A stretch of DNA of 64,000 bases, taken from positions 4,018 to 68,017 of the forward strand of contig CAZYTL010000001.1 of NCBI GenBank assembly GCA_964650355.1, read 5' to 3'. The position numbers and the translations under genes were made by a program. This document shows, piece after piece, positions 3,448-26,640 of this stretch. Within the stretch, counting starts at the first letter, position 1; every line of letters starts with the position of its first letter. The notes below the pieces were generated by a model. The model saw only the letters and a list, made by a program, of their open reading frames with translations. It searched no databases and was not told the origin of the DNA. The DNA is from an uncultured Gammaproteobacteria bacterium (GTDB taxonomy: Bacteria; Patescibacteriota; Microgenomatia; CAYXHB01; CAZYTL01).

Positions 3448-4518
3448 TTAATCACCTCCCTTTCTTTGTAATAAGGTTCCAAAATATTGAATTGCTAGTG
3501 AGAAAATTATTTGAGGTGTGGGTTGAAGTGGGAGTTTATCTTTTTGGCAGGTTTCAAACTTACCTTTATATTCTTGAGCTTCGATCAGCGCTCGCCCCTT
3601 AGCTTTGTTTGCTTCATCTAGTTCGCCTTCCAATACCCCTATGCGAGCCTGTGCCAAGGGTAGTGCATCCGAGCCGTTTTTGAGTTGTTTATTTAGAGCG
3701 TCAATTAGGGATTTATAGTACTTTTCTTTATCTAGCAGTGACTTTTCTAACCTGCTCACTTGTTCAACCCTGTTATCAATTTCAGTGTTGGCTTTGTCTA
3801 CTTCAGTCTGTTTGTCATTTAGCTTGTTAGATAGGTCAGTTTCACGACTTTTATACCCTCCGATAACACTCTTAATTCTATCAGTGGGGGTAGTGTTGGG
3901 GTCATCATTTATCTCAAGTATCTTGAGTGCTTCAGGCCACTTTGTAGCAGAAGCAACAATCTGTTCATATTTGGTACGCCACTCTGGTGTATTGGGAACC
4001 AAACAACTATCTGGGACTGAATTCTCTCCGTTTTCTTTTTTATATTTCCTAAGTTCATCGAAGAATTCTTGAGGATTGATAGCGCCAAAGTAGCCGTTGT
4101 TATAGTTATCGCTTACAAACTTGCCACTTTGTAACTGTCCTCGTTTAACAGTGAGATGAAGGTGGCTCCCTGTGCTATTTCCAGTATTATCGCTAATAGC
4201 CATCGTGTCACCTTCGTTTTTAGTCTCAAAGTGCTCGATGGATTTACAGTGACCATAAGTCAGCTTGTATGTGTTATAAAGCTGGACAATCACTTCAAAA
4301 TATAAACCAAAGCCATCATTGCCTTCATTTCCTTGAGAGTAGAACTGAGACTTCCAGGAAGAGAAAATATATCTGAATCCTTGTGGGGTATCTGGAAACT
4401 TAGTTTTGAAATCCCAGCCGTTATGTCCTTTAAGACCAAAGCGAGCATAGGATTCAGGATTACCACCAAATCCTTGTGTAAGTTCAAATGGTTCTATTGG
4501 TCGAATTATGTCAGACAT
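3448..4518 (-). CDS. endolysin, M23/LytM-family peptidase with C-terminal coiled-coil region
   Basis: HxxxD (KGHNGWDF) and HxH (GSHLHLTV) zinc motifs of M23 peptidases. The position directly upstream of the holin supports an endolysin role. Confidence 0.7.
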   Translation of the reverse strand: MSDIIRPIEPFELTQGFGGNPESYARFGLKGHNGWDFKTKFPDTPQGFRYIFSSWKSQFYSQGNEGNDGFGLYFEVIVQLYNTYKLTYGHCKSIEHFETKNEGDTMAISDNTGNSTGSHLHLTVKRGQLQSGKFVSDNYNNGYFGAINPQEFFDELRKYKKENGENSVPDSCLVPNTPEWRTKYEQIVASATKWPEALKILEINDDPNTTPTDRIKSVIGGYKSRETDLSNKLNDKQTEVDKANTEIDNRVEQVSRLEKSLLDKEKYYKSLIDALNKQLKNGSDALPLAQARIGVLEGELDEANKAKGRALIEAQEYKGKFETCQKDKLPLQPTPQIIFSLAIQYFGTLLQRKGGD

Positions 4519-4521
4519 AGG

Positions 4522-7500
4522 TTATCGGTAAATCAAACTCTTAATACTTTGATTGTCGGTGGAACCACCCCCTTGTTTCAATGGAATAAGTGTTGATTCC
4601 TGTCCATTAGTATCACTATCTTGAGGAACCCCACCGGGAAGAGTTGTTTTCAATAGTCGTTGTAAGTCAGTAGCACTAAATGTGATACTGCTTTGGAATA
4701 GTGCAGCTTCCTTGGGATCGTCATTCATTAAGATAGGAACTATCTGTGGAATTAATTTTTCTGCTTCTTCATTCCACTGAAGAGCCATTTGTTGGGCACC
4801 TTGAAGATCGCCTTCTTCTATAAGTTTCTTCATTTGAAGACGAGTAGTGTTGTAGCCGACCTCAGCGTCATACTTAATATCCCAAGCAATACGCTGTCTT
4901 TCGCCACCGTGAGTTCTATAAAACCGATCCATTGTTAGCCCCAGAACATCTGCAGGACTTAATAATTCGCGCGCCAGGCTTCCTGTAAGCCCGTAAACGG
5001 CGTGAGTAAGCTTCATTGGGCTTACTCCTAGTGCTCTTCCGATAGTAATCGCTAAATCAGGCGTACGGCTGTCGTATTGTTCTGAAGGGGCTACTTTTTC
5101 CAATCGCCTTGGAACCACTGGAAACCCTGTAAAGAAATTCGTATTAGTGGCTATTTCAAGAGGTGTGCGAATAATTGGCGGAAGAGCTCCTGAGAAGAAA
5201 GCCTGGGAAGACAATTCACCGTCACGGGTGAAAGGCACAGGAGCCAACTGGCTCATCCACTCCAACCCAAGTTTAAATAGATTCTGAGGTTCCTGCTTTC
5301 TTATATATTCAAAAGAGTACATCAATGGATTGAAGAAAATCGTACCTATGTCACCTTTGGGAATCTGAACAACTTTAGGAACTCGATTACCTTCCTCGTC
5401 CCGATCCTCACCAACAATCACAATAAAATAGGTATCTTTAGCCCATTGAGGAATATCATCCCAGAGTTCTTCGTGGTTCATGACATTATAAAAATAGGTT
5501 GCCACACCAGGAAGGACGGTCATCGCCAATGCTCGAGCTGCCGTTCGAATAGGATTATCCTTCATAACCCGTCCAACATTAAGTAGCCCCTGCCATCGGG
5601 CATTCACAAATGGGACCCACATATTAATCAGCCGAGCCTCTACACCAGCTTTCGCAAAGTCAACGGTAACATTGCGTGCCTCAAAAGCTGCTTCAAGCGG
5701 AGAAGCTCCTTTGTTCATTGCTTTTTTGTAAATTCCCAATCGAGGAGCAAGCTCAATTGATTCAGAAAAGTTAGCTATTAACTCAAAGGGGTTAATTACT
5801 GCTTTAGTTCTTTCCATCCATTTTGGTCTAAACAATTGGTCAGAAGCCACAGCAAGACCTTTAGTAGATTCGATGTAGCTACCATAACCACCCTGATTCC
5901 TCATGAAGTCGTCATATGCTTGAGATTCCCACTTAAAGGCAGCTTTCAAGCCGTCTTTAAACCCCGATAGCCAAACCGCAGGATTAAACCCATATTTGGA
6001 GACCATTGTTGCTGTTTGGTAATCCCGAACTGCGTTCGAGAGAGTAAAGGGGAAATAAAGCGTAGTTGTTCCTGCTTTGAATGCTTTGGAAGATGTCATC
6101 ACCAACTTGCCCATCAAGCCCGCAGATGCAGGAGTCATGGTGTGCATCGATTCTGAAATATCTTTAGGAATTGCCCAGCGAGTAACTTTTCCTTTTATAA
6201 ATACGCTAATGGATTCCCAACCCTGGGGTGGATTCTCATCTTTGGGAAGAAACTTAATTAAATCTTTAGTGGCATCAGGGTGAGATTGCCTAAGACTGAC
6301 CAACTTCATAGCTACTTTGTTTCTCTCAACCAAACTAACGGCCTTAGTTAAATTATCAATAATGGAGACAAACGGATCACGGATTATTTTGTCAGTGCCT
6401 TCCAGGGCGCTCACGACACCCTGTTTGCTTACAGAAAATGTTTCCGAACCAATCACCATCTTGTCAGCTTCTTCTAGAGTGGGAATAAACTCCAGAACAT
6501 GGAACGGTAACCAGTTTTTATTCTTTTCTACAACAGCATTGAAGGCTCTATTGCTAAGTATTCCTGCATCCCTCATAGGCTCAAGAATTGCTTTGACTGC
6601 CCAATTCTGTACACTATTTCCAACCTGTTCGAGCGTTCTAAATGATTTTTGTCCTACCTTATTTTTTAACTCCTCAAGTGCTTTTTCAGCAGTATCCTGA
6701 CCAACTCCGAGTGGATTTTCTATACCCCGCGCAGCCCTTTCAGAAGTTCGTTGTGCCAGCAGATATCTAGTAAAATCTGCTCGCATTTTGCGAACTGGTT
6801 GAAGAGCTTTATAAAGGTCTTTGAAATTTCCCTCAACAATTCCAAATCTTCCCGCATACATCCTTGCTCCAACGTAGGCACTGGAATCAATATCTATGGA
6901 TTTTCCTTCAAGCTTGCTGACTTTATCTTCAAACTCTTTAATCGGTGCAAAACGATCAGTGAATAATCTGGGGAAAACTTGTATGGCTTTTTTAACCTTA
7001 TCTAGTAGATTTTGAGTTGTGGAGAGTTTGCCCACCATTGCATCAATTTTTCTAAGGGCGCTGTCCTCTGGTGGTAGATCATCTGAGTCAATTGAAGTTT
7101 CCTGTGGTGGTCGTGGTGGGCTCCCTGCAGGTGGTTCTTTTAGCTCATCTGCTCTTGGACTCTCAGGTGCAATTACGCTTCCATCCTGTCGCTCTTTAAA
7201 TACAGGTGAATTTTGAACTTCACTTGGATCTTTGGCCTGCTCGGCTTGTCGTAACTCAATTTCTTCAGGCTTAGTATATTTTTCTCTGACCTCTGCTGCT
7301 TTAACCGCAACTTTTTCTTCTTTGGAGAGTTTCTCCATGAGACCTGACACTTCAGGATCTTTGGCTGTATTTGGTAATTCATTTGTAGAAGGTATTTGCT
7401 CTCTGAAGGCTTTATCGTATCCGCGCCTAAATGTTTCTAGAGCACCATCTTCATCTGAATATACGTTGAGTACTTTTACGTCTTTAGGGTTGAGAGCTAC

Positions 7501-9924
7501 TAGTAAGTCTGCTTCTCCGGCAGCTTTCAGAACAACTGAGTCATATCCAGCTTTTCTAAGTGCCTTATCAACAAGCAATCTTGCAGATTTATTCTTTAAG
7601 TAGGTGTTTATGCTTTCATCGACGTTTGTTTTTTCTAAGACTTTATGAATAAACTCTCCCCAATTATTTGAACCAAAACCCATGAACTTTTCAGGTACCT
7701 CAATAACAAATGGTTTTTTGGGTGTGAACTCTGTCTCAACAATTGCTAAGTTTGCCCCCATTCCAGTCGGATCGGCACGTTTCCCATAGAAAAGTGCTCC
7801 TGACATGGCACCCTTATTCCCAGGTTGTAAATAAACGCCCTCACCATATTTTCTGCCTCCAGAAGCACTAAATGTTTCGGCATCTGGAACTTTGAATCCT
7901 GTCTTTTGAATAATGTCTGCGATTGCTCTGGTAGTACCGTGATAAGAGATTACTGGCTTATTTGGCAATATCTTTCCAGCTTGTTTAGCCAAGGCAAGGC
8001 CATGCTCATAACCTTCTTGAATGACTTGTTTACCTGCCTCCACACTTTCGTATTTATCCTTTATCCATTGAGGTATCTTTTCAAAAACATCATCAACAAT
8101 TGATTTTATAGAAGTACCTTGGTCAGATTTCTCCAACTCGAATTCAAACTTTTCAGGATTTAATACAACAGCTTCACCACTCGTTTCCAAGATAACGTCA
8201 TAGCCTTCTTGCTTTAACTGTTTTGCTACTTCAGTGGCTTCTTTAACGTTTTTGGTTTTACCCATTGTGTTGAGCCATTTTTCAGAATCGTCTCGAAGAA
8301 CGGATATTGTGGCATCTTTTTTAGGAGTAAGTTTTACAATTTGGTCACCATATGTTCCTGCAAAGTGGTCACTGCCTGATCCTTTTTCTGTACTGGCAAA
8401 TAAGGCATATGGAGCTTCATGTCCCTCCTTTACACTCTTTGATGGGTTAAAAGTCTGGCTTTTTACCAGAGATTTAGCATCTTCTGCGCTTGTGCCGTGG
8501 TAAAGGACCGTATTTTTATCTAGAATTTTTGCTGGAGGCCTTGAGGGAGTTACTTGTATCTTATTTTCCATCGCAACCGTCACTAGGTCAGCATCCGTTA
8601 GTTCAGCAACTTGCCCCAATCTGGTTTTAGCATTTTTACCACCAAGCGCAGTTACAATTTCGCTTCTTTGGTCATCATTCAAGGTTGCTCTAATTGATAA
8701 CCCTGCAGGCATATTTCTGACCGCGCGCACTACAATCGCTCGCTTATTTGGAACATCTCTCCAGAGCTGATAGTAAAGATCTTGGAACTCTTGCCTGAAT
8801 GTTTTACCTGTATATCCGGTAGGATTACTCACTTTCGATAAAAATTCATATGCCCTGTTAGCGGTATTCCATGCTTGATTGAATTGACCCATTTCTTGTG
8901 GTGTTTGTTTGGCTTGTGCAGGAAATTGATTTGTAATATCAACAACTTTATTTTTCCAAGCTTGTTTGATTTCCTGGGCTGTTGCTTTTTCGTTAACTCC
9001 CAAGTATTCCAGTGCCTGTTTCTTAGTTATTTTCAATTGTTCGCTCGCAGCTTTTTCTATCTGACTTTCCACAGCGGACTTGTTTGGAAGATATTTTGCG
9101 ACAGCAAAGTTAAGTGAGTGCAGCCCTATCATTGCTGCTGTATTTTTGAGAGCATCTTCGTTTGAGTCACCCTTTATCAAGGAGGTTACATAAGTTGCGG
9201 GGCCAATAATCGCAGAAGATTTAACAAATGATGGTTTCATCCCTGCGATAGAGAAGGCACCACCTAAGGCAAAATCACTAACAATGTCTTTAGCTCGCTG
9301 TTGGGCTGTCTTACTTGCTTCTTCTTTTTGTAACTGCGTAAGTCCAGCGAATGTTAGGCCGTTGGAAAGAACGCTGTATGTTTTCGGAGCAACAGTGGCC
9401 ACCTTGCTCATGAGGGGAACTCCTCTTAGTGCCCCTTGTACTAATTCGCCGCCAACAAGAAATGTTCCTATCGTTCCTAAAACCTCGAATTCAACCTCAG
9501 TCATCTTCCCAGCCATTTCTTCCACATCATTGGCATATTTGATTTCGGGATCCCACCAGCCAAAGGTCAAAGCCTGAGCTAGACCATCTCCGGCACCTTT
9601 GAGAGCTCCAATTGTAGCTTTGGGTAAACGTTCCAATACATCGGTATCACGATCTCCAAGCCCAAGCGTCTGTGCTGTTGCTTCTACGTATATATTCTTG
9701 AATGGCTTATATGATCCACTCGTTGGACCAGAAATGGAGAATTCACTTTGTTCTGGCTTTAATTTCTCTAAAGGTTTGAGAATGTCATCAATCTTTTGAG
9801 TGCCGATTTTTGCTACATTACCAACAGTTTGTTTAGATTTACCAAATAAATCACCAACCGTCTGCTCAGTAGACTGAATAGATGAGGTAATGTTCTTTTT
9901 TAGATTAGTTAAAAAATTGTCCAT
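4522..9924 (-). CDS. giant 1800-aa virion protein (internal/ejection-type polyvalent protein), function unknown
   Basis: Single uninterrupted 5.4-kb ORF placed between the fibre genes and the lysis cassette. It contains two tandem ~170-aa modules, each with a YHGT(S/T) motif and ending in AVVLNPEK / LLVALNPKD. There is a Pro/Glu-rich linker (PPAGSPPRPPQETS). Confidence 0.6.
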   Translation of the reverse strand: MDNFLTNLKKNITSSIQSTEQTVGDLFGKSKQTVGNVAKIGTQKIDDILKPLEKLKPEQSEFSISGPTSGSYKPFKNIYVEATAQTLGLGDRDTDVLERLPKATIGALKGAGDGLAQALTFGWWDPEIKYANDVEEMAGKMTEVEFEVLGTIGTFLVGGELVQGALRGVPLMSKVATVAPKTYSVLSNGLTFAGLTQLQKEEASKTAQQRAKDIVSDFALGGAFSIAGMKPSFVKSSAIIGPATYVTSLIKGDSNEDALKNTAAMIGLHSLNFAVAKYLPNKSAVESQIEKAASEQLKITKKQALEYLGVNEKATAQEIKQAWKNKVVDITNQFPAQAKQTPQEMGQFNQAWNTANRAYEFLSKVSNPTGYTGKTFRQEFQDLYYQLWRDVPNKRAIVVRAVRNMPAGLSIRATLNDDQRSEIVTALGGKNAKTRLGQVAELTDADLVTVAMENKIQVTPSRPPAKILDKNTVLYHGTSAEDAKSLVKSQTFNPSKSVKEGHEAPYALFASTEKGSGSDHFAGTYGDQIVKLTPKKDATISVLRDDSEKWLNTMGKTKNVKEATEVAKQLKQEGYDVILETSGEAVVLNPEKFEFELEKSDQGTSIKSIVDDVFEKIPQWIKDKYESVEAGKQVIQEGYEHGLALAKQAGKILPNKPVISYHGTTRAIADIIQKTGFKVPDAETFSASGGRKYGEGVYLQPGNKGAMSGALFYGKRADPTGMGANLAIVETEFTPKKPFVIEVPEKFMGFGSNNWGEFIHKVLEKTNVDESINTYLKNKSARLLVDKALRKAGYDSVVLKAAGEADLLVALNPKDVKVLNVYSDEDGALETFRRGYDKAFREQIPSTNELPNTAKDPEVSGLMEKLSKEEKVAVKAAEVREKYTKPEEIELRQAEQAKDPSEVQNSPVFKERQDGSVIAPESPRADELKEPPAGSPPRPPQETSIDSDDLPPEDSALRKIDAMVGKLSTTQNLLDKVKKAIQVFPRLFTDRFAPIKEFEDKVSKLEGKSIDIDSSAYVGARMYAGRFGIVEGNFKDLYKALQPVRKMRADFTRYLLAQRTSERAARGIENPLGVGQDTAEKALEELKNKVGQKSFRTLEQVGNSVQNWAVKAILEPMRDAGILSNRAFNAVVEKNKNWLPFHVLEFIPTLEEADKMVIGSETFSVSKQGVVSALEGTDKIIRDPFVSIIDNLTKAVSLVERNKVAMKLVSLRQSHPDATKDLIKFLPKDENPPQGWESISVFIKGKVTRWAIPKDISESMHTMTPASAGLMGKLVMTSSKAFKAGTTTLYFPFTLSNAVRDYQTATMVSKYGFNPAVWLSGFKDGLKAAFKWESQAYDDFMRNQGGYGSYIESTKGLAVASDQLFRPKWMERTKAVINPFELIANFSESIELAPRLGIYKKAMNKGASPLEAAFEARNVTVDFAKAGVEARLINMWVPFVNARWQGLLNVGRVMKDNPIRTAARALAMTVLPGVATYFYNVMNHEELWDDIPQWAKDTYFIVIVGEDRDEEGNRVPKVVQIPKGDIGTIFFNPLMYSFEYIRKQEPQNLFKLGLEWMSQLAPVPFTRDGELSSQAFFSGALPPIIRTPLEIATNTNFFTGFPVVPRRLEKVAPSEQYDSRTPDLAITIGRALGVSPMKLTHAVYGLTGSLARELLSPADVLGLTMDRFYRTHGGERQRIAWDIKYDAEVGYNTTRLQMKKLIEEGDLQGAQQMALQWNEEAEKLIPQIVPILMNDDPKEAALFQSSITFSATDLQRLLKTTLPGGVPQDSDTNGQESTLIPLKQGGGSTDNQSIKSLIYR

Positions 9925-9927: not shown

Positions 9928-11001
9928 TTATACTCCTGGCGTGAATAATCTCCTTAAGAATCCCATTACTCCCGGTTGGGTTTTGAGTTGCCATTCTTCA
10001 TCGATAACAGCGGAAGCGCTCTTTCCTTTATCTGTAACTACACTTGATAAATTCGTTTTCAATTGATCAGCAGTGAAGCCTTGTTTCCAGGCTGCTCGTA
10101 TCTCAGTTCTCAGGTCACCTTCATTTACAGTGGTGTTTGTTGATTCCTCTGATGGCTGCTCATATAAACTAGTTGTTCCAGAGGTTGGATCAAAAAATCC
10201 AACCACGTTCCCAAAGGCATCTTTCACTTGCTGTTTGGCATATGTGCCACTACCTGAACCGCCGGCTTTTGCGCGATTGGTCTGAGCTTCATAGAGTTTT
10301 AATTCAAACTCTTTTTCCCAACGATCTTCTTCTTTTGTTGCAGCAAGTTCTGAGGATCTGACCTGGTTGTATGTATTTATTAACCCGCCTAAAAATTGGA
10401 GATCGTAACGGAGGTTATTTAGTTTTGCTTCCTTACCCTGAGTTTCCATTGCCACTTTGCGCGTAATTTCACCAAGTCTTGCGTTGTAATCTTCGGCTTT
10501 TGCATTTCGTTCCTCGATCAGGTTGTTAATCTTTGCATTGGCGAGCCTTTGAACTTCTCCAGATTCGCCTGTAATAGTAGCGGCCGAATATCCAGGGTTT
10601 TTCCTAATTTTGCTAACTGACTCATCACGAACATTTTTTTCTTTCGCAATGTCCGTATCCAAAGAGCTGATGGTGTCTTTCAAGGTATCCAGTTTTGCTT
10701 TGCTGTATTCTTCGTCATATCGTTTTGTCTGATATCCCTCAAGCTCACCTGAAAGCTCGTTTGCTTTTTTGTAAGTATCCTGAAAATTTGTGTTGAGGGT
10801 TCCGATGTCAAAACCCAGAATTTTATTCGAGCCACTACTTAGTTCAGAAAGACCTGAGCTAAGGTTTGTAGTCGATTGTTGTTTTGTTGGTTCAGTACCT
10901 TCTGTCCAAATGTCTTTTCCGGAGGAATCTGTACCCCACCAGCGGAGAGCCTTGTTGTCATTTGGTTGCCAGTACCAACCACCGTATTGCTTATCTGCCA
11001 T
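9928..11001 (-). CDS. phage structural protein (coiled-coil rich)
   Basis: 357-aa ORF in the tail module with no enzymatic motif. Confidence 0.4.
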   Translation of the reverse strand: MADKQYGGWYWQPNDNKALRWWGTDSSGKDIWTEGTEPTKQQSTTNLSSGLSELSSGSNKILGFDIGTLNTNFQDTYKKANELSGELEGYQTKRYDEEYSKAKLDTLKDTISSLDTDIAKEKNVRDESVSKIRKNPGYSAATITGESGEVQRLANAKINNLIEERNAKAEDYNARLGEITRKVAMETQGKEAKLNNLRYDLQFLGGLINTYNQVRSSELAATKEEDRWEKEFELKLYEAQTNRAKAGGSGSGTYAKQQVKDAFGNVVGFFDPTSGTTSLYEQPSEESTNTTVNEGDLRTEIRAAWKQGFTADQLKTNLSSVVTDKGKSASAVIDEEWQLKTQPGVMGFLRRLFTPGV

Positions 11002-11234
11002 TACGAAGCACCTCCTTTCTGACCTTTAGTTACCTGATTAATTTTTCCGCTACTAAGGTCAAAGGTGTATTCGCTGTTCACATCGAGTCCGTATTTGAAA
11101 TACTTATTAACAAGCCAACGATCTTTTTGTGATTCCAAAGCCTGAACAACTAACTTGTATTGATTAATCATCTGCATTCGCGCTTGCAGTTCATCGAGAT
11201 CTGATTTGTCTAGTTTTTTAGTTTTTTTGAACAT
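11001..11234 (-). CDS. small phage protein
   Basis: 77-aa ORF whose start and stop overlap the neighbouring genes by about one codon. Confidence 0.35.
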   Translation of the reverse strand: MFKKTKKLDKSDLDELQARMQMINQYKLVVQALESQKDRWLVNKYFKYGLDVNSEYTFDLSSGKINQVTKGQKGGAS

Positions 11235-12549
11235 AAGTATTGACCTCCTCTCTGCCTGACATAGTGATAAACTTTCGCCTGTAATCAGCGATTTTTTCTT
11301 CTATGTCGGGACCGCCTCGTTTTCGTATAAGGCTTATTTGGTGTTCAAGGTATCTTTGCTTGAAAGATGCTTCGTCTTCACCGTCTTGCTTGAGTAGTGG
11401 TTCACCTTCTGGTTCAAAATCAAAGTCAAAATAGCCATCACGGACGGTATAGACGCAGAAATCAAACGCTACATTCGAAACACCACCGAGCATTTCTTTT
11501 ACCAAGAGATACTCGTTAGTCAGTTCTGAGATATACAAACCGTTACAATCGGCTCGGGGAGTCAAGTATGCAGTTACATTTCGGGGATCGCTGACCGCTA
11601 TAAAGTGGTCTGGGAAGTCAATTCGTGTCTGTCCGTTACTGAGATTTACTGTTCCTCTATAAACGAGGAGAACTTCTGCTGCCTCGATACCAGTATACAC
11701 CAATCTATGGCCCTTTTTCCGGGGGTGTGGAATGGAGAAGTTGGATGTTCCTGTTTTATTAATGTTGCCAGCAACATTTAAAGCCTCCAAACCTGAGACT
11801 AAGATATTAACTTTGTCAAAATAGCCATAACCACCATAGATGCGATCGGCACTCATTTGTCCGGCATTTACCTTACCGGCATTCAAGTCATTGACTTCTG
11901 CGTTGGTTACAGCTAAATCCTGAATCTTTGCCGTAGAAATGGCCGCATTCATGATTCTGGAGTTTCCAACCTGAAGCAAACCTATTTTGGCATTGGTGAT
12001 AGTTGCATCTGCTATCTCTGCTGCAGTCACAGCTAAGTCCTGGATTTTAGCTGTACTGATAGCAGCGTTGGCGATTCTGGAGTTACCTACCTCTAAAGCT
12101 CCAATCTTGGCGTTGGTAATGGCAGCATCAGCAATTTCAGCATTGGTCACCGCCGCATCTTGTATTTTTGCTGTTGAAATTGCGGCATTGGCTATACGTG
12201 AGTTAGTGATCTGTGCCAAGCCAATATGTGCGGTTAGGATGATAGCTTCTTCAATCTGAGCTGAAAGAGTTATGACAGAACCGGCTTTATAAACCTTTGC
12301 TGCGGTTATGGCATCGTCCTTTATTTTTTGAGTTGCTACAGCCGCATTTGCTAGTTTTTCTTCAGTTACTGAAAAATCATCCAGCTCAGTGTCGCTAACA
12401 GCTCCTGGTTTTATGTTTACGCTATCTACAGAGTTCGGAGCTAAAAGTGGAGAATCAACTCCGTTATGCCTGTGAGGCACTACCTCAGGAAAAGGTTGGT
12501 CTTGTATCTTTTTGTTTTCTAGTACTTTTTTTATTTGTTTCGTTAACAT
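11218..12549 (-). CDS. tail fibre / receptor-binding-type protein with tandem 40-aa repeats
   Basis: Three tandem copies of NSRI(A/M)NAAISTAKIQD(A/L)AVT(N/A)AEIADA(A/T)ITNAKIG, then a Gly/Tyr-rich region. Confidence 0.5.
   Translation of the reverse strand: MLTKQIKKVLENKKIQDQPFPEVVPHRHNGVDSPLLAPNSVDSVNIKPGAVSDTELDDFSVTEEKLANAAVATQKIKDDAITAAKVYKAGSVITLSAQIEEAIILTAHIGLAQITNSRIANAAISTAKIQDAAVTNAEIADAAITNAKIGALEVGNSRIANAAISTAKIQDLAVTAAEIADATITNAKIGLLQVGNSRIMNAAISTAKIQDLAVTNAEVNDLNAGKVNAGQMSADRIYGGYGYFDKVNILVSGLEALNVAGNINKTGTSNFSIPHPRKKGHRLVYTGIEAAEVLLVYRGTVNLSNGQTRIDFPDHFIAVSDPRNVTAYLTPRADCNGLYISELTNEYLLVKEMLGGVSNVAFDFCVYTVRDGYFDFDFEPEGEPLLKQDGEDEASFKQRYLEHQISLIRKRGGPDIEEKIADYRRKFITMSGREEVNTYVQKN
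11860..12204. repeat. about 3 x 120-bp tandem repeat inside the fibre gene
   Basis: Repeated nucleotide blocks (gcaatttcagc..., gcggcattggc...) correspond to the 40-aa protein repeats. Confidence 0.6.
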
Positions 12550-12553
12550 AGTT

Positions 12554-13999
12554 TTATAAAATTCCTAACGGGTCAAAATAGGTTGTTGCTGAAATGATTT
12601 CCGGAGTGTCATTACCGTTTGGATGTAAGTTCATTGCCAATTCGTACTCCTCACCTGCGCCTGGATCTTCCTCATCACCGCCAGTTTCAATCGTGAATAT
12701 TGCCTTTGACTTTCCTTCCTTATCGAAAAGTTCAGCACCATCCTGCATCGTGGCTTTTTGCCAATCTGCTTGTTGGTTAACTTTGAAAAATACTTCAATA
12801 CTGCAGTCCTGAGGTAGTGGTTTCGTGACTAGCTTGATGTGTCGAAAACCTTTTTGAGTAAATGACTCTCCGCCATCAAAAACGAGCCCTTCATATCTGG
12901 CTTCCGCTTTGTTATCAGAATCGATAATATCCACACCAAAATCCGAGCCGTTCTTCCAGGAACAGTGGAGCTTGTCTTCATACATGGTTAAAGCTCCCAA
13001 CAACACGTTTTCTAGTTGGCCGTGAGAGGGTACATACTCAAGATTTAGAGCATAGGGGTCATTTTTGTTTAATCGGCCGTATGAATAAATACCGCATTTA
13101 TCACTACCATTAACTCCAAGTAGAGGTAAGCCACCCATAATAGTCACCCCGCCTGGATTTACCCAGCCATATTCCCCGGGAAGTTTCTTGATTCGTAGTA
13201 GGCTGGAGGTATCCCAAAAATAAAGCCCGCCTCTGACTCCTGCTTGAATTAGTAAAAATTCTCCTTGCAGTAATGCATTAATACCACGCTCTGCCACCAT
13301 TCTTCGCTGGATCCATGAAGGTTGAATCTTATCCCATGTCCATAGCCATCCTTCTTCTACCTTGTCACCTTTGGTTGATCCGAAAACTACCAATTGATCT
13401 AAACCGAATAAGCATTTGTTTCTATGACCTAAAGGAAGATCAATGGCATCTAAGTTAAAGCCTCCCTCGTAGTCAACCATTGCCAGATCTTTGGAGTCAC
13501 AAATAAGTAAAACGCCCAGAGCTTCGCTCATGGTGTGCCAGCTAGGATCACCGTCAAGTGACTGCCAATCATGCTCTACATCAGTAGACCAATTGCCTGA
13601 TAGTTTAATCCTGCTGAGCTTAGTTTCTGTTGCCCAATAAAGGTAAGGAACGTAATTATCAGAACCGTCATTGTTTGTATATTCTGCGGCTCCGATAATT
13701 GCGCCATTTGAGTCTGTGTAAACCAGTTCCCAGGCTCCACTGCCGCCCTGTTTCCTGTAAATGCGGCCAGTATCTCCAAAGCCGTACAGATTGCCGTTAG
13801 AAGCGGGAACAAAGAAGAGGATGAGGTCTGTAACTACCGTGTCGCTATCTATATCTTCTTTGAGTCGTTGATTGCATTTGAGTGTGTTTTCATCGCCACG
13901 AATGTTCAGACCATAGCCAAAACGGAAAGATTCCCTAACACCTTGATAGGGGTCATCTGCAATTCCGCCTCTAAAACCCTGTATTCTATATGCATTCAT
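12554..13999 (-). CDS. phage tail/baseplate-type structural protein
   Basis: 481-aa ORF in the tail module, Gly/Trp/Asp-rich (beta-rich look), no catalytic motif. Confidence 0.4.
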   Translation of the reverse strand: MNAYRIQGFRGGIADDPYQGVRESFRFGYGLNIRGDENTLKCNQRLKEDIDSDTVVTDLILFFVPASNGNLYGFGDTGRIYRKQGGSGAWELVYTDSNGAIIGAAEYTNNDGSDNYVPYLYWATETKLSRIKLSGNWSTDVEHDWQSLDGDPSWHTMSEALGVLLICDSKDLAMVDYEGGFNLDAIDLPLGHRNKCLFGLDQLVVFGSTKGDKVEEGWLWTWDKIQPSWIQRRMVAERGINALLQGEFLLIQAGVRGGLYFWDTSSLLRIKKLPGEYGWVNPGGVTIMGGLPLLGVNGSDKCGIYSYGRLNKNDPYALNLEYVPSHGQLENVLLGALTMYEDKLHCSWKNGSDFGVDIIDSDNKAEARYEGLVFDGGESFTQKGFRHIKLVTKPLPQDCSIEVFFKVNQQADWQKATMQDGAELFDKEGKSKAIFTIETGGDEEDPGAGEEYELAMNLHPNGNDTPEIISATTYFDPLGIL

Positions 14000-14005
14000 A
14001 GTGTT

Positions 14006-14713
14006 TTATGACCATCTGATATTTTTCGCTTGACCAATGAAGACGCTTGATGGTTCTTCGTCTTCACGGTCTTTTATTTGCTGTAACAAGGCATGCGCCT
14101 CAACAACCTCTTTTTCAGCGTCTTTTTTCCGACCTGGAGCCTTCGCTAGACAGGTACCCAGGGCCAATTTAAGAACTGGCTCATCCATTTCTTCAGGAGT
14201 AATCGGTTCATCGGTTTCTTCAACCAATCGAACAGGTCGGCGTTTATAAAATAAATCGATAACTTTCCCTTCAATTTCCAGTACTGGGTCCAAAAAGTAT
14301 TGATCGCCTATGACGGCGTAGACTTTTTGCCAACGCCAGTCTGTATGACTTGATGGATGTACAACGTCGAGAGAAGGATGGAATGTGGGAGCTATTTTGT
14401 TATCAGATTTTCTGCTTAGGTACTGGTTTTCAGTTACTTTATGATGCTCCTCACCATCAACAGACAAGAAAACCATTCCACCTGGCTTATAATCGAATGG
14501 TAAAAAGTAAGATTCTTTTCCGGATCCATCCGGATTAAGTTCGGTCAGTTGAGTGGCATGTTTGCTTAAAAACTTCCACCGTGCAAAATTGCAGGCACGG
14601 ATAATCGCTTTGTTAATCCAACGATCTTTAGCGGAATTCTTCCAGAAACCGCTTACTTTTGAAGCAGTTATTCTGGCATTTAAATCTTCTCTAAATTCTT
14701 GTAATTGCATAGT
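14006..14713 (-). CDS. phage structural protein
   Basis: The ORF track extends it to 14824, overlapping the upstream gene. The internal ATG at 14713 (MQLQEFREDL...) gives a non-overlapping gene. Confidence 0.35.
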   Translation of the reverse strand, partial: TMQLQEFREDLNARITASKVSGFWKNSAKDRWINKAIIRACNFARWKFLSKHATQLTELNPDGSGKESYFLPFDYKPGGMVFLSVDGEEHHKVTENQYLSRKSDNKIAPTFHPSLDVVHPSSHTDWRWQKVYAVIGDQYFLDPVLEIEGKVIDLFYKRRPVRLVEETDEPITPEEMDEPVLKLALGTCLAKAPGRKKDAEKEVVEAHALLQQIKDREDEEPSSVFIGQAKNIRWS

Positions 14714-14720
14714 TTTTTGT

Positions 14721-16385
14721 TTACTGGAGATTTCCAGTTGCTCGATAATGTTGAACATATGGCAACAGAGCGTTCCCCGGACAATTAGTTGCCGATTCAG
14801 GTACTTCTCCGTGACCCAAAACACGTTCTTTAGGGATACTTCGCTCTTGTCGCAACTCGTCGAGAACTGTTTGTAGGGTTTCTAATTGAGCTGCCGTAGG
14901 GGTTTCGTTGTTGTGGAAGTTGCCGCACAGGACTACACCAAGGGATCGGTAGTTCATCTTGTTGCTATCGCAGTGAGCTCCTATTACGTTATCTGGACGA
15001 CCTAAGATCAGGACTCCATCGCCATCAAGAGCACCGGCAACCCATTTGTGATATCCAATATCATCCCAACCGTAGCCGATATGAGCTTTTTTTATTGTTT
15101 GAAAATAGGTGTTGTCTCTGGGAGTTGCCGAATGGTGAACAATGATAAATTCTGGATAGTTTGCCTTGTTGTAGACCTCGATGTCTTTATCGCGCGTTGT
15201 AACTCTGCGCTCACGAGTCCAGGCAATCACTAACTGAGGCGCGTATTTACCAGAATCCTGGTTGTAGTCCCAGATATATTTAGTGTTTCCATGTCCCGAA
15301 AAATAGTTTTCTAAAATAATTCCAAGCTTGCTTCCTGCCCAGCCTGGACGATCAATAATTTCCTGAATTACTCCTTTTAACTCTGGAGACTCGTAAACAC
15401 TCTCTGCTGTCCAATGATCTCCTATAAGCACTCCTGCTTCAGCGTGGCCAGTATTCCATTGGATTTCTGAGGCTGTTTTACTTCTCAGAGAAGGTCTATT
15501 TGATCCATCTGATTGAAAAACTGCAGCATCGTCTTCAGCAATACCTTTTATGAGAATGTTGGCATGACCGTTATTCTGTATTGGGCTTGTTACGAGAAGT
15601 TTGGCTGAGAGAATCTCGACACCCTGAGGTAGAGAGATCGGGCTAAAGATAAATCCTGCATCATTGGCGGATTCGTCAGGATCTAGGCTACCATCATCAC
15701 CAAATGTGGTCATATTATTTTGATAACCACTCGGATACCAGGTTGTTTTGTAGTCTTCCTCTCCATCTCTGTCGTTACCTTGAATAAACCCAACAGTTAT
15801 TTGTTCGTGTAATCCCTGAGGCAGATAGTAGATTTCCAACTCTGCTTGATAACCATCCCCTTTACTGAAGTCAAAGCAGGTTTTTGATTGGTCTGAAGGG
15901 CTACCATCGTCTTCAATAACAAATGCAATAGCGTTCCCAGGTCTCCAGTTTGTTTGGGCAACAAGTTCTTCCACGATTAAGTTCAAATTAGGTGTTTGAA
16001 CCCATTCGTGGACATTCCATTTTTTGATGATGTCCCAATCCACAGAATTAACTGTTTTATTTCTCGTTGACGGACGGTCAGAGCCATCCGACTTGAATGG
16101 AGCGGGATCTGACTCTTTTATTCCCTTTATTTTTAGATTAACTGTAAAATCGCTACCATCGCTTACAGCAGGTCTTAGTTTTAGTCTTGCAAGAAAAATT
16201 TTTGAGAACTGAGGTATATCAATCCCCCTAAATCTAAAGGCGGCTGTTTGGGTTCCTGTATAGTTTCCAAACGTTATAATCCCTGACGAATTACCATCTT
16301 TATTCCAAGTTGAAGAGCCAGCTTCCTTGCCATCGTCAGAGTTCTGTTGAACTGTTGCTGTTATCTTCAGTACTTGGTTTGTCAT
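14721..16385 (-). CDS. tail-associated peptidoglycan hydrolase (N-acetylmuramoyl-L-alanine amidase, Amidase_2/PGRP domain) with N-terminal repeated modules
   Basis: C-terminal IIVHHSAT...GYH...GAHCDSN...ATNCPG carries the Zn ligands of Amidase_2. The N-terminus has two copies of a (F)xSDGS(D/N)RPS(T/L)R(N/S)KT module, also present in ORF 16676..17692. Confidence 0.7.
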   Translation of the reverse strand: MTNQVLKITATVQQNSDDGKEAGSSTWNKDGNSSGIITFGNYTGTQTAAFRFRGIDIPQFSKIFLARLKLRPAVSDGSDFTVNLKIKGIKESDPAPFKSDGSDRPSTRNKTVNSVDWDIIKKWNVHEWVQTPNLNLIVEELVAQTNWRPGNAIAFVIEDDGSPSDQSKTCFDFSKGDGYQAELEIYYLPQGLHEQITVGFIQGNDRDGEEDYKTTWYPSGYQNNMTTFGDDGSLDPDESANDAGFIFSPISLPQGVEILSAKLLVTSPIQNNGHANILIKGIAEDDAAVFQSDGSNRPSLRSKTASEIQWNTGHAEAGVLIGDHWTAESVYESPELKGVIQEIIDRPGWAGSKLGIILENYFSGHGNTKYIWDYNQDSGKYAPQLVIAWTRERRVTTRDKDIEVYNKANYPEFIIVHHSATPRDNTYFQTIKKAHIGYGWDDIGYHKWVAGALDGDGVLILGRPDNVIGAHCDSNKMNYRSLGVVLCGNFHNNETPTAAQLETLQTVLDELRQERSIPKERVLGHGEVPESATNCPGNALLPYVQHYRATGNLQ

Positions 16386-16650
16386 AATCTTTTTTGTTGT
16401 TTTTAACAGGAACGTCTAATTTGACGTTAATTCTGGCGTTACTTTTAACTCCAACCAGCTTCATGATTCTTCTGATTGCAGCTATAGTTGAACCACCTTT
16501 GCCGATAAGAGCGCCGGCATCCTGGTTGTCTAAGCGAACGATTAACAAGACACCCATTTCATCTACCTTGCGTTCAACTGCAACACTTTCCGGTTTATTG
16601 GTTATTGCTTTGACTATTTGTTCTAGTAGAGCTATATCGCTTCCTTGCAT
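16336..16650 (-). CDS. KH-domain RNA-binding-like small protein
   Basis: GALIGKGGSTIAAIRRI is the KH GxxG loop, in a KhpA/YlqC-like 104-aa protein. Confidence 0.55.
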   Translation of the reverse strand: MQGSDIALLEQIVKAITNKPESVAVERKVDEMGVLLIVRLDNQDAGALIGKGGSTIAAIRRIMKLVGVKSNARINVKLDVPVKNNKKDYDKPSTEDNSNSSTEL

Positions 16651-16675
16651 GGTTTGTTCACCTCCTTTTCATTTG

Positions 16676-17692
16676 TTAAATAGCATTTGGTTCTATTGTT
16701 AGTAACAGTTCGGCTGCATTTGCGGCTCCACTGTTAAAGTCCCAAATGTTTTCATATTGATTTGCTGGACTGGCATCATCCTCAATTGACAAAGCCAACG
16801 CTTTCCCGTCAAATTCTGCTTGCTGGATAATTTCATTTATTACTGAAGCTATGTCAGGAGACTCATACCAAGTGTTTAGAGCCCAATCTTCTGCAATATC
16901 CCAATCCACCCCAGCAGTCGTTTTGTTTCTGGTTGAAGGTCGATCACTCCCATCACCAGCGAATGTATCGGGGCTTGCTTCTAAAATTCCTCTGATTTTC
17001 AAAGTTGGCCGTTTAGTAGAATTCACAGCCGCTTTAACTCGTAGGATGGCACTTGTTACCTTGGCGTTGTTGGGAATGAAGGCTCGAAGGAATCTTAGAC
17101 CAGCATCACAACTGCCAGTGTTATCGTTGCCAATGCTTACTTGATTGGCAGTGAAGCCATTGGGATACCAGGTTGTATCGTAGTCTTCCTCGCCATCATC
17201 GTTGTTTCCCAATATTTTAAGTTTTGAGATGATGACCTTATCAAGTTTCGGGTCTAGTTCTGAAGGCGTTGCGAAATCTGTAGGATTTGATCCAGAATCT
17301 TTTGGTAAACCATTACTATCGAAGGCTACAAGATTGTTTTCAATAGCGCCGCTGACTCCAGCATGAGCGACTGGGTCATCCATGTCGTGTTGCCCAGGCG
17401 TTGCAGAAATAACCACCCAAGCAGAACCGTTATAAGTGTAAATTTTGTTTTCATCTTCTACCCAGCAGGCAAAGCCTTCGTTTGGAGTAGTGAAGATCCA
17501 AGTAGAGCCATTAAATTGTGCTATATCGTTGTCATGACCAGCCCATACTCCAGTGGCAGATCCGCCGATTAGATATCTGTCTCCTACTGATTCACCCCCT
17601 GGTGGAGCAGTAAGATCTTTATCGATTACAGAATCCTGCCAGTCAAGCATTTTCAGATCCGTAGCTGATTTTGCACTATTAAATTTGGCCAT
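16676..17692 (-). CDS. tail fibre/spike-like protein sharing a module with the amidase protein
   Basis: GEEDYDTTWYPNGF and GDGSDRPSTRNKTTAGVDWDI are paralogous to segments of ORF 14721..16385. Confidence 0.45.
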   Translation of the reverse strand: MAKFNSAKSATDLKMLDWQDSVIDKDLTAPPGGESVGDRYLIGGSATGVWAGHDNDIAQFNGSTWIFTTPNEGFACWVEDENKIYTYNGSAWVVISATPGQHDMDDPVAHAGVSGAIENNLVAFDSNGLPKDSGSNPTDFATPSELDPKLDKVIISKLKILGNNDDGEEDYDTTWYPNGFTANQVSIGNDNTGSCDAGLRFLRAFIPNNAKVTSAILRVKAAVNSTKRPTLKIRGILEASPDTFAGDGSDRPSTRNKTTAGVDWDIAEDWALNTWYESPDIASVINEIIQQAEFDGKALALSIEDDASPANQYENIWDFNSGAANAAELLLTIEPNAI

Positions 17693-17698
17693 ATGTAT

Positions 17699-17995
17699 TT
17701 ATTTTTCGGTTATTATCTCTACGACTTGTCCTGCTACTGACGAGCTGACCACTATCTGAGTTGTGTTTTTAATGCGCAAGGATAGGCTGTCACCAGGGTT
17801 ATCAATAATAAATGGTCCGTTTTTGCTATCATCATCATCGTGGGCAACATTTATTTCACCCGTATTGCCCGTCTTGCTTTTGATAACCACCTCACAACCT
17901 TCTCCGACTTTTATGTCAGGTAATGAGTACCATTCATCCTGATTTGTCAGAGTCACTTGGGCAGTAGTAAAAGTAGGTCTACTATTGCTGGACAT
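17699..17995 (-). CDS. small phage structural protein
   Basis: 98-aa ORF in the head-tail module. Confidence 0.35.
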   Translation of the reverse strand: MSSNSRPTFTTAQVTLTNQDEWYSLPDIKVGEGCEVVIKSKTGNTGEINVAHDDDDSKNGPFIIDNPGDSLSLRIKNTTQIVVSSSVAGQVVEIITEK

Positions 17996-18000
17996 AAGTT

Positions 18001-18642
18001 TTAAAACTTCGGCTGTTCAGCCGTACTCCTAACTCCGGTTACAGTCTTTTGGGCATCTGCGCCCTCAGCTGAACCTTTCATTTCAACCTCTTTCTGCTGA
18101 AGAGCTTTCTCTCTGGCAGCCAACTCTTTTTCTCGTTCTTCTAGAGTTCTGAACTTTTCTTGATAGAGTTGATCAACACTCTTACCACCTTTAAGATCAG
18201 CAGTATCGACTTTTCTGAATACATTGCCAAAATTTGGATGATTATCCAGATATTCAACTTCTTCTTGATTGCTAGTCTTGTAAACACCCTCATGGAATTG
18301 AATATATTTCCCTCTGATGATTAGAACTTTGCCACCAACTTCCTTAAGGTAGGAAGGATTCATGACTAGCTTTAATTCAAGGTAGCGGGAGATATAGACA
18401 ACCTCTTTAGGAGTTTCAGCTTTTTGGCTTGTTTGCTTTGTTTCAGGCTGTTGGACCGGAGCATTATCAGAGCCAAGTTCATCATCTTGAGGCGGTTTAT
18501 TTCCAGCAGATTTTTTTGCCTCTTTAATGCGAGCAATAAGCTCAGGTTTTTTGCCGTCTTTCGAGATACCAAGTTGCTTAGCTTCACTCCACAACTCAGC
18601 CATACTCATATCTTCTAGTTGTTTTTCGGTTGTTTCTGTCAT
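18001..18642 (-). CDS. phage protein with Rho-N/SAP-like N-terminal domain
   Basis: MAELWSEAKQLGISKDGKKPELIARIKEA matches the Rho termination factor N-terminal / SAP-like helix-hairpin. It sits immediately downstream of the capsid gene. Confidence 0.45.
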   Translation of the reverse strand: MTETTEKQLEDMSMAELWSEAKQLGISKDGKKPELIARIKEAKKSAGNKPPQDDELGSDNAPVQQPETKQTSQKAETPKEVVYISRYLELKLVMNPSYLKEVGGKVLIIRGKYIQFHEGVYKTSNQEEVEYLDNHPNFGNVFRKVDTADLKGGKSVDQLYQEKFRTLEEREKELAAREKALQQKEVEMKGSAEGADAQKTVTGVRSTAEQPKF

Positions 18643-18811
18643 AATTTTTTCACCTCACTTTCTTTTTTGTCTGATTAATATGGCTCCAGACTTGAGTGAA
18701 GGGGTGATAACGCCCACCCCTTCTTAGGCGACTACACTGAGTAAGAAAGTGTGTAGTGACTTCCAGTTTTTAGTTTGTTCATTCATAAGTTTTTTCAGTA
18801 ATAAGTGTGCT

Positions 18812-19978
18812 TTAGAGCGAGCCGACACTCATGATTGCGTGACGCTTCTCTTGCTCCATTTGCAGACCACATTCTGTTAGGTATTCATCAACCTGACTGT
18901 CTTCACCAGGGTTTTGACGGTTAGTCAAAAGCTTAGTGTCACGATTGGTCAGGTAGCGGTATGTCAAAGCCTCCATATCTAGACCAACGGCATAGTTACC
19001 GTAAGTCGTTCCAATTAAGAGTGGATGCTTGATGATGTGCAGAGTTCCATGCGGAGAGTCGTAAGTTACGATCCTTAATCCATAGGCTTTAGTAGGGTTA
19101 ACTACCTGGAGTTTCCCTTTAGCCCAACCATTAATCATTGAAACAACTGCTGCGGATGCAAACAGATATTTCTCAGTATTTCCGTGAGCGAAGAGACTCT
19201 CTAGCCATGAATCAAATTCTGATTCTGTGTCAACATTGGCGGTTGCATAGGTTGCGATTCTTCCAAGAATACCGTTAGTAAATCTTTTCGGATGCGTACC
19301 AGAAGTAATGACTCCTTTTTTACCAAACATAAAAGTACGCTCGATATCGACATAGTGTTCGATACCTTTTTTGCGCCTTTGGTAATCAAAGTCATTTTCT
19401 TTAACCCAGCCTTGAGTATTTCTAGCAGTTTCAGTAATACCCACTGGAGTTCGGAAGATCTGACAGTAGTTTGATACTTCGGCAATCGTAGTCGATTTGA
19501 TATCGCGCAAGCCCGCACCTTCTTCATTGGCGTTACCAATGAGCCAAACGTCTCCAACTGCAGAAGCAGCGGATCCAGTTGCCCCACCTAACTCAGCACC
19601 TACTGTTACAGTATTTGCGTCAACTATTGCTGTCACTTGGAAGACCCATTTTTGAGCAGCGACTAAAATTATGTCGCCAACTTGTAAGTATTGGGATTGT
19701 CCAGTGATAGTTAAGTTACCTCCGTCAGGATCAATCGTGCTGGAACCCGTCAATTGACGTTTTCCAAACTCATCTTCAAACCATTTGAATTCTGGATCTG
19801 AAGACTCTCTTTTTTTCAGAGCTTCACCTTCGCCGGTTGCCGGATCTTTTCCTGCGTTCGTCAGAATCGCTAAGAGAGGATATCTGTTGACATCCAATAG
19901 CGATACAACATCCGCCACGTCATATTTGCGTGTTGCACCTACATTACCTGTACCTCTAATTCCTGTTGCTGATGGCAT
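18812..19978 (-). CDS. major capsid protein (likely HK97-fold)
   Basis: 388 aa, immediately downstream of an acidic scaffold-like gene. Size and composition fit a major capsid protein. The call rests on position, without motif support. Confidence 0.5.
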   Translation of the reverse strand: MPSATGIRGTGNVGATRKYDVADVVSLLDVNRYPLLAILTNAGKDPATGEGEALKKRESSDPEFKWFEDEFGKRQLTGSSTIDPDGGNLTITGQSQYLQVGDIILVAAQKWVFQVTAIVDANTVTVGAELGGATGSAASAVGDVWLIGNANEEGAGLRDIKSTTIAEVSNYCQIFRTPVGITETARNTQGWVKENDFDYQRRKKGIEHYVDIERTFMFGKKGVITSGTHPKRFTNGILGRIATYATANVDTESEFDSWLESLFAHGNTEKYLFASAAVVSMINGWAKGKLQVVNPTKAYGLRIVTYDSPHGTLHIIKHPLLIGTTYGNYAVGLDMEALTYRYLTNRDTKLLTNRQNPGEDSQVDEYLTECGLQMEQEKRHAIMSVGSL

Positions 19979-20014
19979 ATTATTTTTTCACCTCCTTTCT
20001 TATTAATTAGGGGA

Positions 20015-20851: not shown

Positions 20852-20855
20852 AGGT

Positions 20856-21110
20856 TTATTCCTTTCTTAAGCTCTGAGCGGTTTCATCGCGCTCTTTAAT
20901 AACGCCGTCAACCATGCTCAAAACTTTTTTGTAGGCCTTGATCAGCTGTTTATGTTCAAGGTCTTCTTCTACTGGGCAATCCAATAGATCTTTTGTTTCG
21001 ATCTCGACTTCTTTATCGATTAAGCCTTTGATTATTTGCCAACCTTCTGTTTGGGTCATTTCCCAGACAGCTCGTCCTCTTTCTAGTTTTTCGTCTAGTT
21101 CGTTAGTCAT
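20856..21110 (-). CDS. small phage protein
   Basis: 84-aa ORF tightly packed upstream of the scaffold gene. Confidence 0.3.
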   Translation of the reverse strand: MTNELDEKLERGRAVWEMTQTEGWQIIKGLIDKEVEIETKDLLDCPVEEDLEHKQLIKAYKKVLSMVDGVIKERDETAQSLRKE

Positions 21111-21112
21111 TT

Positions 21113-21851: not shown

Positions 21852-22043
21852 ATTTTGTCCAGATATATTTTTCTAAGACCAAGCAAAAAGGGCTGCAACT
21901 TCTAAACACACGCTCATTTTGCGTATATTCAGAAGCCACAGCCCCGATTGTTTCGTTAGGCTTTACTTCCTAATGAATCCAGTCTAGTGAAGGAAAATCA
22001 AAACAGCAATAAACTTTCTGTTAGTTTATGGTGATTTAGAAAA

Positions 22044-22412: not shown

Positions 22413-22439
22413 AAACCTACCCTTTTAGTCAAGGGTAGT

Positions 22440-22655: not shown

Positions 22656-22658
22656 TTA

Positions 22659-26632: not shown

Positions 26633-26640
26633 AGTTTTTC

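Follow-up and report, generated by a model that had tools for sequence, protein, structure and literature searches.

A candidate polyvalent protein with two modules of the ADP-ribosyltransferase superfamily in a putative SU10-like phage of Microgenomates

The stretch of DNA analysed here (the window) comprises 64,000 nucleotides, positions 4,018 to 68,017 of contig CAZYTL010000001.1 in assembly GCA_964650355.1, which is labelled as an uncultured Gammaproteobacteria bacterium and placed by GTDB in the Patescibacteriota (Microgenomatia). Its minus strand carries, at 4522-9924, one uninterrupted frame of 1800 codons with an ATG start, the product of which is probably a polyvalent protein of an SU10-like phage with two modules of the ADP-ribosyltransferase (ART) superfamily in a central slot (Table 1; P and L numbers denote homologous proteins and loci). 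A preliminary description had recorded this single 5.4-kb open reading frame (ORF) and two YHGT-type motifs, each followed by a characteristic end. The frame is confirmed, and all four motifs are located in its translation: YHGTS starts at residue 475, AVVLNPEK at 585, YHGTT at 661 and LLVALNPKD at 807. The whole protein contains only 13 His residues. From its composition 0.0016 YHGT tetrapeptides would be expected, and at least two were seen in none of 20,000 shuffles.

The two motif-bearing regions (residues ~465-597 and ~653-821) align end to end with 28% identity (pairwise blastp, E 8e-6). The tandem repeat proposed in the preliminary description is upheld by this alignment, but not the common size of ~170 residues, as the modules are ~133 and ~169 residues long. 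A profile of ART-PolyVal type, built independently from related modules of other proteins with the window modules and their close relatives P0002-P0004 excluded, finds exactly two domains in the protein, at residues 470-594 and 655-821. When each module is scored alone, module 1 reaches 38.9 bits and module 2 reaches 55.0 bits, against 9.9 and 6.2 bits, respectively, for the best of 500 shuffles. The two modules fall into different subfamilies of one domain and do not represent a recent tandem duplication.

ART-PolyVal (Pfam PF18760) is the H-Y-D ADP-ribosyltransferase clade (Tox-ART-HYD2) of phage polyvalent proteins (Iyer, Burroughs, Anand, de Souza and Aravind 2017, J Bacteriol, PMC5512222). 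Among the sister modules collected in alignment A1, 9 of 13 match ART-PolyVal (best E 4e-8) and 7 of 13 match PARP (best E 2.5e-6). An exhaustive search with residues 455-830 against 1.8 billion representatives (50%-identity clusters) returned 49 matches, nearly all of them to module 1 at 32-52% identity; these are large proteins with a median length of ~1000 residues, and 18 of the 49 carry two or three motifs of the HG[TSV] type (or YH[TH]TS). Module 1 is therefore no orphan or decayed copy, but a member of a widespread subfamily, in which an ART-PolyVal match at E < 0.01 is found in 3 of 40 members. The module-1 subfamily, with the window sequence left out, aligns by hhalign to the ART-PolyVal-type modules, with the window and its close relatives left out, at a probability of 99.1% (E 6e-19, 121 columns). 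At the level of sequence profiles, homology to ART-PolyVal is established for both modules. Of the two fold classes suggested in the preliminary description, the ART assignment is supported by the A1 sister modules, the independent profile and hhalign, and the Tpt1-like assignment is not supported, for lack of conserved Arg residues.

These results also bear on the possibility that the motifs recur by chance or reflect low complexity, and that there are no effector domains in what would be an ordinary structural or tape-measure-like protein. Such a reading could draw on the whole-protein Pfam and PHROG scans, which give only LPD38 and families of unknown function, and on a word-indexed search with the 402-residue module region, which returned nothing. 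That search and the A1 profile search, which returned only two proteins, both with PF18760, each missed the identical protein P0001 in the same database, so that negatives from sub-sequences are uninformative here. The shuffles, the independent profile (39-55 bits, best shuffle 10), the 49 relatives from the exhaustive search and the hhalign result all stand against it; the chance-repeat version is refuted by them, and the explanation as a whole deserves almost no credence. Structure prediction gave low-confidence models, with pLDDT values of 35 (single-sequence AlphaFold, residues 455-830) and 53.

Comparison with the PDB raises a further question on the chemistry of the modules. The A1 profile gave weak matches (E 0.007-0.8), mostly to the ART superfamily, among them Tpt1, PARP1, PARP10, diphtheria toxin, cholix toxin and tankyrase, and in these the His of YHGT falls on the catalytic His, and GxGxY on GKGIYFA of PARP1. 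Alignment A2 likewise placed Tpt1 and PARP10 on top, among a few unrelated weak matches; phmmer searches of the PDB with the modules returned nothing but noise, e.g., MTH1 and a decarboxylase. Tpt1 has the catalytic tetrad Arg-His-Arg-Arg. Because the best profile matches of both alignments are Tpt1 RNA 2'-phosphotransferases (E 0.007-0.01), we have to consider that the modules are active users of NAD+ other than protein ARTs, acting by ADP-ribosylation of nucleic acids (DarT-like), by NAD+ hydrolysis or by RNA 2'-phosphotransfer as in Tpt1/KptA, and the superfamily does include enzymes with nucleic acids and small molecules as their targets (PMC5512222, PMC9503650). However, the Tpt1 matches are confined to ~30 residues at the YHGT strand and the helix behind it, and no Arg is even 90% conserved among 40 module-1 relatives, so the Arg tetrad is absent. 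Tpt1-like chemistry was rejected on this ground, and the closest Pfam families, ART-PolyVal and PARP, modify proteins, which leaves a non-protein target rather improbable.

The architecture of the whole protein provides insight into its class. A whole-protein search returned the identical P0001 and ~35 homologues with 50-84% identity, the sources of which are named Microgenomates, Woesebacteria and Daviesbacteria. All of the ~35 homologues have residues 1-460 and ~930-1800 in common and differ in the middle. This middle slot has no insert in P0009 and P0011, one short ART-like module in P0005-P0008 and P0013, and a longer ART-like module, recognised by Pfam as ART-PolyVal, in P0024, P0025, P0027 and P0031; two ART-like modules occur in P0027 and in the window protein. 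The slot of P0004 holds a minimal Pol-beta nucleotidyltransferase (NTP_transf_2, E 1.8e-5), and another slot module of ~95 residues resembles the plant BRX domain (E 5e-6). We interpret the variability of the slot as the cassette behaviour described for polyvalent proteins. Some further slot modules among homologues P0002-P0035 have no family match, e.g., a 'PTWKHSKMLWNTMRNQYG' module of ~120 residues. Another, of ~180 residues ('VRYSTEK...GGTWY...GYDALIL'), recurs in the unrelated proteins P0067 and P0076.

The C-terminal part also bears on the class. LPD38 (PF18857) is specific to phage polyvalent proteins (PMC5512222), and the PHROG 9854 match spans residues 971-1648 (E 7e-63). By tblastn, the C-terminal module of ~700 residues is matched in 153 phage records, mostly short-tailed phages of Vibrio, Bacillus, Pelagibacter and others, in which it is fused to regions annotated as RelA/SpoT, DNA methylase or DarB-like antirestriction; one homologue is annotated as "virion structural protein". 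No PDB relative of the N- and C-terminal regions was found, a megablast search against phages gave no match, and an NCBIfam scan added nothing; the upstream neighbour of the gene has no family match. The linker that precedes module 2, probably with a helical N-terminal extension, is inherited together with that module in P0002-P0004, and the acidic linker behind it is less conserved (60-65% identity to P0002 and P0003). The J-domain-like stretch of the N-terminal region is kept in all homologues and has QFPAQ in place of the J-domain HPD, which makes a functional Hsp70 co-chaperone motif improbable. A membrane-inserting N-terminus was considered and dropped, as there is only one weak hydrophobic segment (residues 144-166).

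A scan of GTDB genomes yielded an orthologue with 96% identity that carries both modules (L005). In the comparison with it, in which synonymous divergence is unsaturated (dS 0.23-0.9), module 1 shows 27 synonymous and 8 non-synonymous differences, 3 of the 8 at its N-terminal edge, with a ratio of non-synonymous to synonymous substitution rates (dN/dS) of 0.063. Module 2 shows 23 and 2 such differences (dN/dS 0.022), and the values for the conserved flanking regions are comparable (0.015-0.026). Against the distant P0002 and P0003, module 2 gives a dN/dS of 0.05-0.07, with dS saturated. Both modules are under strong purifying selection, and the low ratios thus indicate that they are kept as folded, functional domains. 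The same 6.4-kb sequence, identical over the locus (L005, L006), occurs in two metagenome-assembled genomes (MAGs), one of Candidatus Woesebacteria (HKST-UBA22) and one labelled Pseudomonadales (isolate HK-STAS-PATE-16). The latter is probably a Patescibacteria genome that carries this label through an error of taxonomy or binning.

The gene closes an SU10-type virion module of portal, capsid, adaptor, fibres, the 1800-residue protein and an M23-like peptidase. The proteins gp20-24 of phage SU10, the genes of which follow those of the tail, occur in virions and disappear from them when the genome is released, i.e., they are ejection proteins (PMC9509320). The gene occupies the corresponding place by synteny, which agrees with the position of an internal or ejection protein assigned to it in the preliminary description. 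The relative P0028 lies on a 1.1-Mb Candidatus Daviesbacteria contig among the same neighbours, with a phage integrase ~2 kb downstream and then ordinary cellular genes; because of this arrangement, the element appears to be a temperate phage of Microgenomates-group bacteria of the candidate phyla radiation (CPR). We regard it as probably an SU10-like temperate phage with a short tail, either integrated into a Microgenomates genome or associated with one.

We consider it probable that the protein is a phage-type polyvalent protein of an SU10-like phage, the central slot of which holds two ART-superfamily effector modules. The conserved N-terminal region and the LPD38-containing C-terminal module would form a chassis, which would be responsible for incorporating the protein into the virion and for its ejection through the tail along with the DNA. 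Between the two parts of the chassis would lie a slot for swappable cassettes, filled here by what appear to be two diverged ART-superfamily domains related to the ART-PolyVal (Tox-ART-HYD2, H-Y-D) clade. Like T4 Alt, the modules, once delivered, would most likely bind NAD+ and modify host macromolecules by ADP-ribosylation at an early stage of infection. Homology of the domains, protein architecture, synteny, exchange of cassettes and purifying selection are shown by the data; virion packaging, ejection, the use of NAD+ and the targets are inferred, and effector action on the host has been predicted for polyvalent proteins as a class (PMC5512222, PMC9503650).

Several points weigh against this interpretation. 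We found no ART-PolyVal or LPD38 member with a biochemical test. The Pfam gathering cut-offs are 31.2 bits for ART-PolyVal PF18760 and 26.7 bits for PARP PF00644; module 2 stays below the former with 19.7-20.3 bits (E 0.001-0.0016, profile positions 6-131 of 140), and for module 1 there is no ART-PolyVal match at E up to 10. Against PARP, module 2 is likewise below the cut-off (11.5 bits, E 0.21). The column that holds Asp in the family ([VI]-F-D-P in most sister modules) is Asn589 in module 1 and Asn812 in module 2. No zincin-like metallopeptidase or other peptidase family was found in the protein (Pfam, E up to 1), where a zincin metallopeptidase is the usual, though not obligatory, processing domain of polyvalent proteins (Iyer et al. 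2017).

The sub-threshold Pfam scores and the Asn residues are also points in favour of an alternative, in which the modules are catalytically dead ART-like pseudoenzymes that bind NAD+, ADP-ribose or an ADP-ribosylated target, acting, for example, as decoy, sensor or inhibitor of an NAD+-based host defence, or else are structural spacers in an ejected protein. The polyvalent-protein ART clade is defined by a His in strand 1, a Tyr in strand 2 and an Asp in strand 5 (PMC5512222). The strand-1 His (His476, His662) is invariant in all aligned modules. The strand-2 aromatic residue of module 2 is Tyr698 in GEGVYL. Module 1 has no GxG before this strand and bears Phe509 in place of the family Tyr, as do many of its relatives (F in 27 of 40, Y in 12 of 40), which again fits a pseudoenzyme. 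A second aromatic residue follows ~10-16 residues further on, as Tyr713 in module 2 and as Tyr525, which is invariant, in module 1; we take this spacing to recall the Y-X10-Y pair of diphtheria-toxin-type ARTs. In the module-1 subfamily the Asp column is occupied by N (31 of 40), S (5), D (3) and K (1) and is therefore not under constraint of a catalytic type.

The conservation of other residues argues against the loss of activity. Across 40 representatives of module 1 that are at most 50% identical, His476, Gly477, Glu503, Tyr525 and Glu584 are invariant, and a set of His476, Glu503, Tyr525 and Glu584 fits an active site better than a scaffold, an argument that is weaker for module 2. Glu584 lies five residues ahead of Asn589 (E-A-V-V-L-N-P), which we liken to E988-Y-I-V-Y-D993 of PARP1. 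The same E-x-h-h-h-[N/D] spacing is present in ART-PolyVal-type domains, with Asn at the site in P0046, the second module of P0048 and P0096, and with Asp in P0047 and the second module of P0076. These tabulations by a regular expression for the strand-5 motif are used for the ART-PolyVal-type domains only, as they are unreliable for module-1-type domains, for which the counts are based on alignment. The Glu at -5 in the domains with Asn suggests that the acid was relocated rather than lost, and together with the very strong selection (dN/dS 0.02-0.06) it makes catalytically dead modules unlikely.

Under the preferred reading of two effector modules, Glu584 is the likely catalytic acid of module 1, as judged from the alignments. 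Module 2 shares G-E-A, but three extra residues precede its strand (G-E-A-D-L-L-V-A-L-N-P), and because of this insertion its acid is uncertain, with Glu804 and Asp806 as candidates. A bolder idea, possible if doubtful, is that module 1 represents a widespread and unannotated clade of the ART superfamily, in which the acid has moved from the Asp of H-Y-D to the Glu at -5, to give an H-E-Y-E set in which Glu503, ahead of strand 2, is a new invariant residue. The 49 relatives are mostly giant uncharacterised phage-like proteins. If the idea is true, the chemistry or target class of the clade could differ from that of the known polyvalent-protein ARTs, and phages of CPR bacteria would be among its users.

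Tandem ART domains in phage polyvalent proteins are already known from computational prediction in 2017, when 1 to 12 ART copies per protein were described (Iyer et al. 2017, PMC5512222). The window protein resembles these proteins in its very large size, its place among late virion genes, the combination of LPD38 with one or several tandem ART modules, the variable domains, and the predicted packaging and injection with the DNA. By contrast, its modules are sub-threshold in Pfam and have Asn at the Asp of the clade, a metallopeptidase was not found by the Pfam scan, the host belongs to the Microgenomates, and module 1 falls into a sister subfamily with invariant H/E/Y/E that is hardly detected by the Pfam model. 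As a functional model we refer to T4 Alt, an ART borne by the particle and delivered with the DNA, which modifies the host RNA polymerase and other proteins (PMC5512222). T4 Alt differs in belonging to the R-S-E (Alt/VIP2) clade and in being a single-domain protein of a myovirus head, whereas the modules of the window are of H-Y-[D/E] type and lie inside an 1800-residue protein of a short-tailed phage. The H-Y-E ARTs of known structure (PARP1, PARP10, diphtheria and cholix toxins) share the motif series of hydrophobic-H-G-[ST], G-x-G-h-Y-h, a second aromatic residue ~10-11 residues on and E-x-h-h-h-[D/N], although the profile matches to them extend over the N-terminal half of the domain, with E-values of only 0.01-0.8.

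The likeness to gp20-24 of SU10 (Kuravirus) consists in the genome place after adaptor, nozzle and fibre genes, and this argument is one of synteny only. A homologous C-terminal module of ~700 residues, with 23-29% identity (E down to 9e-46), is present in the large LPD38 proteins of several cultured short-tailed phages, namely Bacillus phages Page, Pony and PK1, Pelagibacter phage HTVC010P, Vibrio phage VvAW1 and Escherichia phage PTXU04 (gp25). In PTXU04, gp25, with 2197 residues, is the product of the last large gene of the late operon. The N-terminal and central parts of these proteins from cultured phages are, however, unrelated to the window protein and are annotated as DNA methylase, RelA/SpoT, DarB-like or hypothetical.

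Modestly new are the CPR host lineage, the clear organisation into chassis and cassette, and the module-1 subfamily with shifted invariant residues that is missed by Pfam. CPR bacteria such as Microgenomates are uncultivated, and the takeover of their cells by phages is almost wholly unstudied. The locus suggests that SU10-like temperate phages of Microgenomates use the polyvalent-protein strategy, and the hypervariable slot, with its ART-like, nucleotidyltransferase and other modules, offers a ready list of candidate effectors for host manipulation. The module-1 subfamily could be tested biochemically in vitro with no need for a host.

The neighbouring genes of the virion module are listed in Table 1. 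The M23-like peptidase is probably a virion-associated cell-wall hydrolase and has the same position in L001 and L002. The upstream neighbour is possibly a co-packaged virion or ejection protein.

Table 1. Features of the candidate polyvalent protein and its surroundings (positions in the window; residues of the 1800-residue protein where applicable)
Feature	Residues	Positions	Strand	Basis
Candidate polyvalent protein gene, complete	1800 in all	4522-9924	-	ORF list and translation
Conserved N-terminal region	1-460	8545-9924	-	85-90% identity to P0002 and P0003; present in all Microgenomates homologues
Weak J-domain-like stretch	306-364	8833-9009	-	DnaJ match, E 0.003, below threshold
ART-like module 1	465-597	8134-8532	-	38.9 bits against independent ART-PolyVal-type profile
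Module 1 key residues	His476, Glu503, Phe509, Tyr525, Glu584, Asn589	8497-8499 (His476), 8173-8175 (Glu584), 8158-8160 (Asn589)	-	
Linker and N-terminal extension of module 2	598-652	7969-8133	-	Alignment of the window protein with P0002 and P0003
ART-like module 2	653-821	7462-7968	-	55 bits against independent profile; Pfam ART-PolyVal sub-threshold
Module 2 key residues	His662, Tyr698, Tyr713, Glu804, Asn812	7939-7941 (His662), 7831-7833 (Tyr698), 7489-7491 (Asn812)	-	
Acidic proline-rich linker	822-960	7045-7461	-	23% D+E, 11.5% P, contains PPRPPQE
Conserved C-terminal carrier module	~961-1700	4825-7044	-	Pfam LPD38 and PHROG 9854 matches
LPD38	1486-1659	4948-5469	-	Pfam E 1.3e-24, above gathering score
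M23-like peptidase, 356 residues, directly downstream		3448-4518	-	Peptidase_M23 E 4.6e-5 (below threshold); PHROG metallo-endopeptidase and endolysin matches
Conserved upstream neighbour, 357 residues		9928-11001	-	Same position in L001, L002 and L003
Tail-fibre protein		11218-12549	-	Same-strand virion gene
Counterpart of SU10_adaptor gene		14006-14824	-	Corresponding gene in orthologous locus L002 annotated SU10_adaptor
Amidase_2-containing protein		14721-16385	-	Same-strand virion gene
Tail-fibre protein		16676-17692	-	Same-strand virion gene
SU10-type major capsid protein		18812-19978	-	PF17236, E 1.6e-44
Reverse transcriptase RVT_1		22659-23696	-	In low-GC patch
AAA_5 MoxR-like ATPase		24689-26632	-	Portal-capsid insertion
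VWA/CobT_C protein		27066-29162	-	Portal-capsid insertion
TPR and HEPN_LA2681 protein		29201-30763	-	Portal-capsid insertion
SU10-type portal		31060-32967	-	Same-strand virion gene
Type I restriction-modification, HsdM		33392-35614	+	Adjoins portal gene
Type I restriction-modification, HsdR		35621-38416	+	Adjoins portal gene
HerA-like ATPase		39612-41471	+	Same low-GC region

Four genes are inserted between the portal and capsid genes on the minus strand (22659-30763) and resemble a defence or accessory island. They include a reverse transcriptase; no template or variable repeats of the kind found in diversity-generating retroelements (DGR) were found in 10000-24500. The region 33392-41471, which adjoins the portal gene, has a markedly low GC content (0.30-0.35) and the opposite direction of transcription. 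An ORF of 98 residues on the plus strand (2661-2957), immediately past the group of small genes after the M23-like peptidase, takes the position of MazE_antitoxin in L001 and L002, an assignment by synteny only. Finally, a 53-nt direct repeat with 81% identity is shared by the amidase-containing gene (15727-15779) and the tail-fibre gene with DUF2793 (17157-17209), and may reflect a shared N-terminal anchor motif.

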